Part shown: positions 57,444-62,684 of the stretch, one piece after another
Numbering within the stretch: position 1 is the stretch's first letter
How the letters are laid out: each line of letters opens with the position of its first letter
Assembly (NCBI GenBank): GCA_010093605.1
Contig: MU004190.1
Coordinates: 1,310,961-1,374,960 of the forward strand
Direction of reading: 5' to 3'
Source: Lophium mytilinum
Taxonomy: Eukaryota
DNA length: 64,000 nt
Notes under the pieces: generated by a model
Told to the model about the DNA's origin: nothing
Seen by the model: the letters and a program-made list of their open reading frames with translations, nothing else
Database searches by the model: none
Position numbers and translations under genes: made by a program

Positions 57444-58509
57444 TCAAAGCCCCTGGATCCCCTGAATCCCCGTCCACTCCACATCCCCCCTCTCCGCCAA
57501 AATCCTCCTCACCGAGTCCTCGAACCGCTCCGGCTCAAAGTTGAACACCCCATTATCCCACGGCTTCGGCACCCCCACCGTCCCCGGCTCCCCCAGCGAC
57601 TTCTTCAGCAAAAACGCCAACTCCCCATCCACATCTCCTCTCTCCCTACACGCCTCCGCCCTCTCCACCGCATCCTGCTGTGAGTAGTACGTACACGCAT
57701 ACTTCACCCCCTGCACCTTCTCCAGCGTCGCAACAACCTCCTTCCACGCATACACCCCCTCAGGGACGCGGAAGACACGCTCCCTCCCCGCAGCCTTCGG
57801 AAGAAGCGTCGACTGCAAGATATACCGCGCGGCACTGCACAGACGTCAGTCCCTACCCACACACACACACTTGACGAGGAAAGAACCACAACCAACTCAC
57901 TCCGCCGCCGCCACCCACTCCGCCCTCTTCTCCGAACTCCCATACAGCACAAACGTATGCTTCTCCGTATCAACACCAAACAGCGGCATCAGCGCAAACT
58001 CGACAAACGCGCCCGTGATAACGAGAGTGTAGTTGAAACCCGGGGTTTTCTGCACCGCGGCGCGGAGGTGCGCGACCGTGCGCTGTTTCTCGCGGAAGTA
58101 GGGGTTGGTGAGGTAGGCGCCTTGGTGGCAGTCGCCGCCGTACTCAGAGGGGTAGAATTCCGTGACGCCGGCGGCGATGGCGGCGTCGATGATGGCGGGT
58201 TGGGCGGCCATGACGTGGTTGCCAAGGAGGGAGATGACGGTGTCGAAGCCTAGAGGGGGAGTGTTGGGAGGGGTGTGGAGGAGAGGGTGGGGGAGGGGGG
58301 GAGGTACCTTTGAAGGAAGAGGCGTCCGTGTAAGAGCCGATGATGAGTTCGAAGCCTTTGGTTTCCATGTCTGTGAATTTGTGGCGTTTGGACTCGGTGG
58401 TGAGGATGGCGAGGCGGGTGAAGCTGGAGCGGTTGTGGAGGAATTCGTTTGAGACGTGGACGCCTAGCCATCCGCTTGCGCCAATTAGGAGGACGGAGGG
58501 GGATGCCAT
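57444..58509 (-). CDS. NmrA-like / isoflavone reductase-family oxidoreductase
   Basis: VLLIGASGWLG, FDTVISLLG, IIDAAIAAGVTEFYPSEYG, YFREK, YTLVITGAF; two introns. Confidence 0.88.
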
Positions 58510-59552
58510 GGTGTGGACGCCGGTTGTACAATAGCTGACTGATTTGAGAGTAGATGAAGAAGTGACAATGGGTCAATGCGATGGAAGAGAGGTTGTTCGG
58601 TGCAGAATGCGGGCTTAAGTACTCCTCAGAACAAGGTCCAAGAAGCTCCATCCATGACACGTAATGCCGCGTTATTAGAAATCCAAATAACTGCTGAATG
58701 TGTTATTAGAGCATGTGGCACAAGGAAAGGTATGAATCTGGAAAACTAAGATGAAATAGGCAGTGGGTGTTAGCCTGAGCCAATCAGACCGTGGCCTGTT
58801 CAAAGTACGTACCATGCTACCTGCACAGACACCCACTTCCTATCTTAGCCTAGTATACCTTAGCGCAGATGTCATGTCCGGTCGAAACCCCAACTTTATA
58901 GCGAGTGCACCGCGATCGAACATACCTGCTACCGTTTGCAGTTTAATGTTGATATGCCGAAGTAGACTTGCAATCATTACCCATCACTGACCAGCAACCG
59001 TTGTGAGTGAGACTGTTCGGTCAGTCCCGCGAAGACAAAGAAATTGTAGCGTAGAGAGTAAAGAATTCGGTGTTTATTCATGACTCGGTCGCCTTGAAGT
59101 CTACTGGCCGCTTGCTGAAAACCAATTCCCAGCCTAGTTCGAAGCTGGCACCGCATTGCCTCGTGTATGAACCCGCCACGACCGTATTTCTGACTGGAAA
59201 ATACCGAAGGGGACGGAGAAGTAGAAAATGAAAGAACAAAGCAATGAGATCCAACCACGCGACCCGTTACACTCAAATCCAAGTCAAGTTGCCTCCTCAA
59301 GCCTGACGACCAGGCACGGATCAATGTCCCGAGAAAGTAGAAACATGAAACTCCTATGCAAACGCCTAGAGCCCCGTGGGCTGAGCCGAAGAAACACAAA
59401 TCGTGCGTTGTCGCTATTCATGACGAAGAATATGGTCATGTGGCTATAGACGTACTCGAGTCGAAATCGAGACGCACTGAAGCCGGTGCCCTCCTAAGAT
59501 GCTGGGGATATATGTAGAAAGAACGCCAAAGTGGAAAGGGCACGATGGGAGG

Positions 59553-60623
59553 CTAGATCTCCTCCATGTTGCCTGCGGGCTCCTCGTCTTCGCCTGACGC
59601 ATAGCTGCCGACAGAGCTCATCTCATCGTCAAGGTCGCTTTCTTCGTCCGCTTCGTCGGCGGCGTCTTTGGAGGCATATTTGGCGACGTATTCTGTGAAT
59701 ATATTAGAATGTTGTTGGAACAGAAGTGGAAAAGACTGCCACGAGAAGTCCATGTTCTGTGATTTCAGGGGCACGAAGTGGCGACTCACCCTTCACCTTT
59801 GCATCATAACTCTTCGGCTCCCGCATCAGCAACGCTGCAGCCTCGCCGTTCAAAGGATCGGTGGGGTTTGGGTAGCGGAGAAGTTGAGGTAGGAAGACTT
59901 CGAAGATGTTGATCATGTCATACATTGGTGACCAGGTCTGGTTGATGACATCCAGGCATACGGAGCCAGATCTTCATGAGAGTTAGTCGCAGTCTTGGGG
60001 TTCCAGGACAGGGGTCATACAACTCGTCGATGTTGGGGTGGAATATGCGATTCACGAAGCCAATACTGGGGCTCTTGTAGGGATATTGGTCGGGGAGTTC
60101 GACGTGGATCTTCCATAGACCGCCGGCGAAGGGTGCTGTGTTAGTGTTAGTGAGTGAGAATCTACGGTTATATTGGGGACTACCCACTCTCTTCAGGGCC
60201 CTTGAATCGGACGTAGAACTCTTGCCTGTAGTACGTTAGGGCTATGTTGAAGCCGAGTAGTGTAGTTGGTAGAAAGATAGTGTAACGAACACTGCGCCGG
60301 GTTAGCTACCATCCGCGGAGCCAGTATCGGGCAACTTCAACATACTATTGTCATTGACCAGAGTTACTTCGTAGTCGCTCATCAACCTGTTCAAGTCTCA
60401 GCCTGGTGTTCAGATATATCGGGACTGGTAGGAGCTTTAGGGGGCGTAGTAAACGTACATCCTATTCTTGTTAGCGGAGTTCATCATCAGTGGAATGTAG
60501 TGACTTACTTCATGACCTGAACGCGCCGCAAGAAAGCTCGTTAGTCTTTGCCCTTCGCATAGCTCCAGGTCATGTCTGGAAGGCACTTACGTCCGTCTCG
60601 ATACGTCTCTTTGGGCTGCTCAT
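59553..60623 (-). CDS. UBC8: Ubiquitin-conjugating enzyme E2, Ubc8/UBE2H type
   Basis: Spliced [47 protein letters not shown]...[27 protein letters not shown]...acidic tail; requires micro-exons (see findings). Confidence 0.95.
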
Positions 60624-61591
60624 CTTGTCGGGCGTTGCCTGTCCACTTATTCTCCGGTGGACCTTGTATGGGAAAAGAAGCTAGTGGCAGCGTTCCTGTT
60701 TGTTCCCAAGCTTCAGAAAGTTGGTTAGCACTCAGAGGAAGTTCAGCGTCTCGCAGGCAAGCTCGGCGGGTGCTGCGGCCGGGATATATGCAGATAGTTT
60801 GCCAGCGAAGTAGCGGGGCGCTTTGTTGGCGGGGTGTAGGCGTATGGAATGAGGCTATAGAGAAGTGAGGGGCAGACAGAGCGGGATCAGCGAGAGGCGG
60901 CAGATGAGGCTGTTGGCGGGTGAAAGCGGATTTATGGGACGTTCTCTCGCGGCAATGAAGGTAGTAGAGGAAGGTTATGGAGGATGATGCTGGCAGCTGC
61001 AGAGTCACGCAAGCAGGAGGTCCCCGTGACGCCGAGCCGCCACTCTTCCAAGTCTGGGCCTGAGACCCCGCGATAGATCACGTGGAAACGTATTTGCGGA
61101 TAGATATGGGTTAGCATTGCTATAAACATGTACGATCGGAACAGAAAGCCGGCTGTTATCTGGCAAGTTTTGGTGTTGAGTTTTACCAATAGGGTGGCCT
61201 GCAGGGAGCTCAACTCCACCTTGGAACTTCTGCCATGAGGGGTGCAACACCACACGCAAATCCTAGTCTCCCCTTCTCCCCAAACATTCCAGCACTCCGC
61301 AAACGACGACCTCGGGGATGTCGAACAAAGAGGGGCGCGCGGAGTCTGGGCGCAGGCTGACTCCATTCTCCGACAAGCACCGGACCGAGGCCTGGCAAAG
61401 CTGAACAAAACACCCACGGATCCCGCCTTCGTTCTCTCCTCTGCGCTGCAGAAAACATCACGAACCTCACCCTTTAAAACAAGCCTCCGCACGTCCGCCA
61501 TGGCCCGGAATTTTGCTTCTCTCGCCTCCTCGACTTCACTGAAGAAGTCTCATCCACCCCCCATCGCCGCAAATACCCAACGCATATCGCC

Positions 61592-62684
61592 ATGTCGCGT
61601 GCCTTGACTCGTCTTGTCCCAACTTCCTCATTTCCGTGTCTGACGTCTCCGCCACGATGGAGGCCCTCGCTGCCGGTCGCAATATCGCACACCCTGCTGT
61701 CGCCAGTCGCCCAGACTAGACATAGCTCACACTCGCCGATGGGTGCTGCTCCAGCCCAAGTCCGCAAGTCCGTCACCATCAACACCCTGCAGTCGCTATA
61801 CCGCAAAAACGAGCCCATCACCATGATCACCGCTCACGACTTTCCAAGCGGCCACGTCGCCGACCACGCTGGCATGGACATGATACTCGTTGGCGACAGT
61901 CTCGCCATGGTTGCGCTGGGTATGGAGGACACGAGCGAAGTGCTGCTGGATGAAATGCTGCTTCATTGTCGCTCTGTCGCACGAGCTACCAAGTCGGCCT
62001 TCACCGTATGTTGCCCTTCCGTCACTTCTTCATCCAAGAGCAACCCTAACACCCTCTTAGGTCGGTGATCTACCTATGGGCTCCTACGAGGTCTCCCCCG
62101 AGCAAGCCCTCACCTCCGCTATTCGCGTCATAAAAGAAGGCCGAGTGAAGTCTGTCAAGTTAGAGGGCGGGGCGGAAATGGCTCCTACCATCGCCGCTAT
62201 CACTCGCGCCGGCATACCCGTCCTCGCCCACATAGGCCTCACCCCTCAACGCCAAAACGCCCTCGGTGGCTTCCGTGTACAAGGCAAATCAACCGCCTCG
62301 GCCCTTTCCCTCCTTCAAGATGCGCTCGCGGTACAAGCTGCCGGCGCATTCGCCGTAGTCCTCGAGGCAGTGCCGGCTGAGGTTGCTGCCATCGTCACCA
62401 GTGAGCTCAGCATCCCTACCATTGGCATCGGCGCTGGAAATGGCTGCTCCGGCCAGGTGCTCGTACAGGTCGACATGTCCGGGTACTTCCCACCAGGACG
62501 TTTCCTCCCCAAGTTCGTGAAACAGTATGGCAATGTGTGGGCAGAGAGCATGCAAGCTATTCAAACCTATGGCAAGGAGGTCAAGAGTCGGGAATATCCG
62601 GCGAAAGAGCATACATATCCTATGCCGAAGGCCGAATTGGCCGAGTTTGAAAAGATTATCTTGGAGAAGAGGGAGAAGGTTTGA
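61592..62684 (+). CDS. ECM31: 3-methyl-2-oxobutanoate (ketopantoate) hydroxymethyltransferase, PanB family, with mitochondrial-type presequence
   Basis: ITMITAHDF, ILVGDSLAMVALG, VGDLPMGSY, VKLEGG, AHIGLTPQ, PTIGIGAG, GQVLV; one intron. Confidence 0.95.

Follow-up and report, generated by a model that had tools for sequence, protein, structure and literature searches.

The 64,000-nucleotide stretch of Lophium mytilinum DNA analysed here (the window) carries, on the minus strand from 60623 to 59553, a gene for a ubiquitin-conjugating enzyme (E2) of the UBC8/UBE2H type. Assembled from the DNA, this gene has nine exons, with lengths of 33, 8, 3, 41, 1, 38, 115, 182 and 140 nt, and eight introns of 47–97 nt. 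Each of the eight begins with GT, ends with AG and has a CTRAY-like branch motif close to its 3' end. With the single T of exon 5 included, the model gives a 561-nt reading frame that encodes 186 amino acids and contains the string ..NDNMQEF... Two neighbours were recognised by eye from their translations. The divergent neighbour on the plus strand (61478–62684) has PanB-like motifs and resembles a ketopantoate hydroxymethyltransferase. Downstream of the E2 gene, on the minus strand (57444–58572), lie reading frames that resemble an NmrA/isoflavone-reductase-like protein.

The translation of the E2 gene contains an HPN motif (in ..FHPNIDE..), a catalytic Cys (in ..SVCLDVIN..) and an acidic tail. 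The Pfam domain UQ_con (PF00179) is detected with an E value of 9.6e-41 on P0021, a database protein that is 98.9% identical to the E2 model, and it also matches exon 7 and exon 8 of the model when each is searched alone (E values of 1.6e-12 and 2.5e-14, respectively). The nearest database proteins carry the names ‘ubiquitin-conjugating enzyme E2 8’, ‘E2 H’ or ‘Ubc8’, and the closest named protein, from the Dothideomycete Cenococcum geophilum, shares 93.6% identity with the model, which marks the source of the window as a Dothideomycete-like fungus of the Pezizomycotina. With its UBC core, HPN motif, Cys, acidic C-terminal extension and named relatives, the predicted protein can be assigned to the UBC8/UBE2H class. 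Members of this class (UBC8/UBE2H, also Gid3) work with the GID/CTLH ubiquitin ligase in yeast and human, and yeast Ubc8/Gid3 has a role in glucose-regulated degradation.

All features of the gene lie on the minus strand and are given here in the direction of transcription. Exon 1 (60591..60623, 33 nt) runs from the start codon to ..ETD and is followed by intron 1 (60517..60590, 74 nt, GTAAGT..ACTAAC..CAG). Two micro-exons come next, both of which are conserved at related loci: exon 2, of 8 nt (GTCATGAA, 60509..60516), and exon 3, of 3 nt (GAT, 60459..60461), separated by intron 2 (60462..60508, 47 nt). Beyond intron 3 (60387..60458, 72 nt), exon 4 (60346..60386, 41 nt) ends in ..GAC AAT A, where the final A is the first base of a Met codon. 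The middle base of this codon is exon 5, the single T at 60291..60291, which is set between intron 4 (intron a, 60292..60345, 54 nt) and intron 5 (intron b, 60226..60290, 65 nt). The third base comes from exon 6 (60188..60225, 38 nt), which starts G CAA GAG. After intron 6 (60136..60187, 52 nt), exon 7 (60021..60135, 115 nt) encodes the UQ_con core with the HPN motif, and after intron 7 (59972..60020, 49 nt), exon 8 (59790..59971, 182 nt) encodes the catalytic Cys. Intron 8 (59693..59789, 97 nt) precedes the coding part of exon 9 (59553..59692, 140 nt including the stop), which encodes the acidic C-terminal tail.

The DNA around the T at 60291 reads GTATGT..GCTAAC..CAG | T | GTTCGT..CCTAAC..CAG. 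Two introns thus stand one base apart here, and both are complete: neither shares its donor, branch motif or acceptor with the other. The initial annotation of this DNA had recognised the same arrangement, and the coordinates it gave for the end of exon 4, intron a, the T, intron b and the start of exon 6 all proved exact when they were re-read from the DNA. It had also proposed that inclusion of the T restores the expected string DNMQEF, as it does in the 186-amino-acid translation, and that skipping the T shifts the frame ahead of the catalytic Cys. The latter holds as well: in the translation of the T-less splice form, the frame is lost after ..VNDN and a stop is reached before both the HPN motif and the catalytic Cys.

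Transcript evidence came from four of six candidate sequencing runs (X1–X4), which were compared with the window as assembled contigs. Such contigs make the major form readable; rare isoforms, strand and read-level amounts are outside their reach. Run X1 contains a 3149-nt contig, at a depth of 514, that aligns to the window in six pieces (59400–59692, 59790–59971, 60021–60135, 60188–60225, 60346–60393 and 60589–60750). The internal borders of these pieces all coincide with predicted GT–AG splice sites, and all eight introns are absent from the contig. The library type of the run is unrecorded, and the contig is regarded as a spliced transcript because its internal borders fall on predicted splice sites. 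Introns 6, 7 and 8 correspond to the joints 60135/60188, 59971/60021 and 59692/59790, the second of which is also present in run X4, and exon 1 is covered without a break by the piece 60589–60750. The contig differs from the window at two positions only, both within the piece 60346–60393. Between 60750 and the last base of exon 4 it counts 212 letters, an exact match to the leader and exon 1 followed by 8, 3 and 41 nt. The two letters that the aligner left between pieces and the two mismatches in 60346–60393 are the 8-nt and 3-nt micro-exons, misaligned. The X1 contig also extends about 2 kb past 60750, roughly to the end of the PanB-like neighbour, and it seems to merge two head-to-head transcripts, those of the E2 gene and of this neighbour.

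At the junction between exons 4 and 6, the X1 contig has exactly one letter between 60225 and 60346, an A on the plus strand and hence a T on the gene strand. The same 120-nt skip and the same single letter are found in run X2, from a relative, so that intron a is skipped, and the T retained, in both contigs. In run X3 the alignment breaks off at 60225, and the unaligned letters that follow are those predicted by ..AAT GAC AAT AT. Over 60241–60395, run X4 has an unspliced piece, which has no bearing on the T junction; the same holds for parts of the stretch that the contigs of X2–X4 leave uncovered. Neither a splicing intermediate nor a lariat was seen in this material.

The observed junction can be set against every way of cutting the DNA. 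An exhaustive script found no contiguous deletion across exon 4, the intervening sequence and exon 6 that produces it, which excludes the removal of any single intron, and likewise of any nested intron pair (stwintron), since a stwintron is removed as one contiguous block. There are 32 T's within the 120 nt that separate exons 4 and 6. Only one of them, the T at 60291, leaves GT..AG on both sides; the other 31 have no known boundary pair on both sides.

Particular alternatives fail for reasons of their own. A [D1,2] stwintron lacks a GT after the base that succeeds the first donor G, and a [A2,3] stwintron would yield ..AATA|CAAGAG, two letters short of the RNA. An in-frame option that joins the donor GTATGT to an acceptor ..ATAG at 60242 needs 16 letters between the flanking exons, where the RNA contig has one.

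The arrangement was next compared with related loci. Metagenome contigs were scanned with the exon 8 peptide, and the best 80 of 387 confirmed matches were taken, a choice that biases the sample towards close relatives. At each locus, the region between ..NDN and [Q/S]EF.. was read after the flanking peptides had been located. Six of these best 80 loci are cut off upstream, eight are complete cDNA-like contigs and 66 are informative genomic loci. The cDNA-like contigs among these best 80 matches all read ATG (8/8). Among the genomic loci in the same best 80 of 387, 54 of the 66 have this codon split as A|GT..AG|T|GT..AG|G, one (L041) has intron a only (A|intron|TG), and 11 have an uninterrupted ATG with other introns kept, four of these on contigs of 10–229 kb. 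In 53 of the 54 two-intron loci the T can be placed in one way only; L030 offers two AG-T-GT sites, either of which gives an identical mRNA. The parser required AG-T-GT, and the fair figure for this core is accordingly 54 of the 55 split loci, not an invariance of those columns.

Two of the cDNA contigs can be paired with a genomic locus. The cDNA L022 matches the genomic locus L039 at 97–100% over exons 4 and 6 and over exon 1 together with the 5' UTR. The cDNA L075 matches L078 at 91–100% in exons 4 to 8, and its matches to exons 4 and 6 stand one letter apart.

These results bear on what the initial annotation had proposed for this site. Its central claim, a one-nucleotide exon by which three exons each contribute one base (A|T|G) to a Met codon, finds support in the X1 contig, in the enumeration of deletions and T's and in 54 of the 66 genomic loci. 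Its view that the stwintron readings do not work agrees with the finding that no contiguous deletion gives the RNA junction. Of the two comparisons it had suggested, that with cDNA gave a junction with the T, the competing form from the GTTGAA donor being absent from the assembled transcript, and that with orthologues gave an internal AG-T-GT core in 54 of 55 split loci, as scored by a parser that required this core.

The introns themselves have diverged widely. The 53 loci represent 44 distinct sequences, or 45 together with the window. Among the distinct two-intron sequences, intron a measures 46–87 nt and intron b 50–95 nt, with a median of 58 for both. Outside the splice signals the introns are unalignable: clustering of the 45 sequences at 70% identity leaves 36 groups, and no shuffled pair exceeds 64%.

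The neighbouring micro-exons share in this conservation, the 8-nt and 3-nt exons being present in most of the related loci (among the best 80 of 387). At several related loci intron 2 is missing, and the two are fused into an 11-nt exon. In one lineage, represented by L076, intron 1 starts with GC (GCAAGT) and is likely a GC–AG intron.

The loci that depart from the two-intron structure bear on its loss. Locus L041 is the sole case seen of the loss of one partner, and no locus has lost the upstream intron alone (both among the best 80 of 387 matches). Loci L044 and L052, which have a protein tail similar to that of L041, keep both introns. Among the loci with an intron-free ATG, the neighbouring introns that remain follow at least three patterns, which suggests several independent losses of introns in blocks. 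Such block losses would be expected from recombination with a cDNA copy.

The sequence of the mature RNA, the signals in the DNA and the conserved arrangement were each observed directly. On this basis, the T at 60291 is very probably a constitutive one-nucleotide internal exon of the Pezizomycotina UBC8/UBE2H-type E2 gene, flanked by two short U2-type introns that are removed separately. The two introns, of 54 and 65 nt, would interrupt a single Met codon in phases 1 and 2, and two separate splicing reactions, one for intron a and one for intron b, would leave an mRNA that reads A-T-G. Each intron would be recognised as a unit (intron definition), as is usual for short introns in fungi, so that the length of the exon between introns a and b would not be limiting. 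The YAG acceptor of intron a probably overlaps the U1 contact region of donor b. Because of this overlap, the two reactions are probably sequential, and intron a is most likely removed first, since it is transcribed first and is complete about 65 nt earlier.

A single error path would be open to such a system, namely the pairing of donor a with the branch point and acceptor of intron b, by which the T would be left out. This loss is probably suppressed by a strong branch motif, almost invariant, that lies near acceptor a, together with weaker signals in intron b. A CTRAY branch motif is present in 42 of 45 sequences for intron a vs 25 of 45 for intron b, and a pyrimidine stands at donor position +3 in 6 of 45 vs 21 of 45, the 45 being distinct sequences that are not phylogenetically independent. 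The asymmetry of branch motifs and donors is in keeping with selection that favours the proximal 3' splice site as the dominant one. Across these 45 intron pairs, the signals of the downstream intron b are unusually weak and those of the upstream intron a are near consensus.

The same error path could also be used as a regulated switch. Under certain conditions donor a would be joined to acceptor b, the T would be skipped, and the frameshifted mRNA would be degraded or yield a truncated product, so that the amount of E2 would be lowered. Skipping is physically plausible, as the 120 nt form a canonical GT..CTAAC..AG intron, its product stops early, and yeast Ubc8/Gid3 takes part in glucose-regulated degradation. 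However, the RNA-derived sequences seen all include the T; no T-less sequence is present among the X1–X3 contigs and the eight cDNA contigs, with the qualification that contigs drop rare variants. From this it may be inferred that T-skipping is absent. Furthermore, an uninterrupted ATG has replaced the whole arrangement in several lineages, which argues that the arrangement is dispensable, and the strong branch motif of intron a resembles the outcome of selection against skipping. A splicing switch for this E2 thus finds no support in these sequences and is unlikely.

A second alternative does without a micro-exon. Four bases into intron a lies another GT (GTTGAA, 60341); one long intron from this weak donor to the final CAG at 60226 would stay in frame and read ..DNSMQEF.., with an extra Ser. 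Equivalent proteins do exist in the databases, as one extra residue (NDN-S-x-QEF) is found in 5 of 65 named genome-annotation proteins, for example in Pseudocercospora fijiensis and Cenococcum geophilum; these 65 are one representative per 90% cluster, so that aberrant models are over-represented and the count is not a per-genome error rate. Against this, the X1 contig has one letter and not four between exons 4 and 6, and hence lacks the DNSMQEF form, and X2 and X3 agree with it. The eight cDNA contigs (8/8) and the transcript-type proteins read NDNM[QS]EF. Moreover, a locus whose tail is 100% identical to that of the Cenococcum protein carries the AG-T-GT core, which indicates that the extra residue in the Cenococcum annotation is an artefact of the GTNNGT donor, and NDN-S-x-QEF models in general are explained by a gene finder that takes the second GT of such a donor. 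As the main product, the form from the GTTGAA donor is contradicted, and the reading is very improbable. An artefact, whether a one-base assembly error or RNA editing or slippage at a site with only one intron, has nothing in its favour beyond the rarity of one-nucleotide exons and can be set aside as scarcely credible, as A|intron|T|intron|G recurs in 54 independent assemblies whose intron sequences are unrelated, and introns a and b both carry branch motifs of their own.

The taxonomic breadth of the one-nucleotide exon can be estimated from the proteins encoded at the metagenome loci. Since the last exon encodes an acidic tail that is specific to lineages, tails were compared with those of named proteins; the taxon labels that follow reflect the identity of this 46-amino-acid C-terminal tail and not the placement of a genome. 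Tails that are 100% identical link L024 to Cenococcum geophilum, the L006 group to Pyrenophora teres, the L009 group to Pyrenochaeta sp., and L037 and L039 to a Mollisiaceae species (Leotiomycetes). Among Pezizomycetes, Trichophaea hybrida and Wilcoxina mikolae have tails 96% identical to that of L055. P0122, a transcript-type protein of a Pezizomycetes-like group, reads NDNMSEF; its tail equals that of L061 and L066. Weaker tail matches, of 76–89%, point to Sordariomycetes and Lecanoromycetes. Judged by tail identity, the carriers thus appear to include Dothideomycetes, Leotiomycetes and Pezizomycetes.

Pezizomycetes and other classes have the two introns in the same phases of the same codon, and the simplest explanation is that the arrangement arose once, before these groups diverged, and was later lost in places. 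Pezizomycotina probably inherited the whole 5' architecture of 33|8|3|41|1|38 nt from their common ancestor, and it was probably lost as a block in some lineages. A bolder and broader proposition, for which the chances are about even, is that the 1-nt, 8-nt and 3-nt exons are all ancestral to crown Pezizomycotina and have been kept since before the Pezizomycetes split, that the signal asymmetry may fix the order of splicing and prevent loss of the T, and that most public filamentous-ascomycete models of this E2 are wrong. If the ancestry in crown Pezizomycotina is true, the UBC8 T exon would be the most widespread and the oldest single-nucleotide exon known.

The UBC8 exon can be compared with several known systems. 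Recursive splicing uses ratchet points (AG|GT, also called ‘zero-nucleotide exons’) in long introns of Drosophila and vertebrates. As in UBC8, an acceptor there abuts a donor, and after the first ligation the 5' splice site lies at the end of the new exon. However, nothing is retained at a ratchet point and the introns are very long, whereas one base is retained in UBC8 and the introns are about 60 nt.

Stwintrons of Pezizomycotina, including the [D1,2] and [A2,3] types, are removed as one block with nothing retained (Fekete et al. 2017, PMC5587772). They share with the UBC8 arrangement two short U2 introns in contact, consecutive reactions and evolution by the loss of one partner. They differ in that one intron of a stwintron lies inside the other and splits one of its splice signals, while the UBC8 introns are un-nested, have independent signals and leave one base behind.

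Among true one-nucleotide exons is that of Arabidopsis thaliana APC11, a constitutive 1-nt internal exon (Guo and Liu 2015, PMC4674806). This exon resembles the one described here in that it stands between two GT–AG introns, is required for the reading frame and was missed by annotation. APC11 encodes a RING subunit of the APC/C in a plant, and its single base is A, whereas UBC8 is a fungal gene with a base T between introns of 54 and 65 nt. The APC11 exon was tested with reporter constructs, and the UBC8 exon is known from sequence only. The UBC8 layout is kept across several fungal classes.

The initial annotation had named APC11 as the known case, and as a sole example this is out of date (PMC12940212, PMC12230235). 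The Fusarium CYP621A P450 genes contain a one-nucleotide exon with an AGGGT core and SRA read support, which its authors present as the second example overall and the first in fungi (Nelson and Syed 2026, PMC12940212). It has much in common with UBC8: both belong to Pezizomycotina, the exon supplies the central base of a codon within a conserved motif, the core is AG-N-GT, transcripts support it and gene finders do not see it. The CYP621A exon is a G, reported for 20–24 orthologues within Fusarium and its near kin; the gene is rarely expressed and its function is unknown. UBC8 differs in its AGTGT core, in being a housekeeping E2, in having carriers in Dothideomycetes, Leotiomycetes and Pezizomycetes, and in the 3-nt and 8-nt exons just upstream. 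A long-read annotation of Coprinopsis cinerea lists ‘1 nt, 13 exons in 13 genes’ (PMC12230235), and this count suggests that one-nucleotide exons arise repeatedly in genomes with short, closely spaced introns. This species is a Basidiomycete, and the figure is a genome-wide count, given in the passages concerned without gene names or conservation; a UBC8 orthologue could be among the 13 genes.

A literature search whose scope ended short of subscription journals and supplements found no description of a micro-exon in UBC8, and a word search of a further stwintron paper (PMC5639578) found no mention of micro-exons or one-nucleotide exons. The exon thus appears to be previously undescribed for this gene. 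It joins a very small class, within which it is distinguished by the depth of its conservation, by its neighbouring micro-exons and by its systematic mis-annotation. One-nucleotide exons mark the lower limit of what the spliceosome can handle, and only a handful have been documented. The UBC8 exon is transcript-backed, lies in a highly expressed housekeeping gene and recurs in many fungi that are culturable and genetically tractable. It therefore offers a natural system for studying how introns that stand one base apart are recognised, in which order they are removed and how the T is protected from being skipped.

The expectation that gene finders would miss a one-nucleotide exon was also well founded. 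Only 4 of the 65 named annotations, a sample selected as described above, have the correct junction NDNM[QS]EF, and the other 61 of the sample examined have a wrong junction or a broken N-terminus. Both the annotation pipelines and the orthology sets for Pezizomycotina carry a systematic error in UBC8, which a simple AG-N-GT rescue rule would fix. Besides the five models with an extra residue, three of the 65 continue in a shifted frame (NDNSK..), and the remaining wrong models lack an exon or read into an intron.
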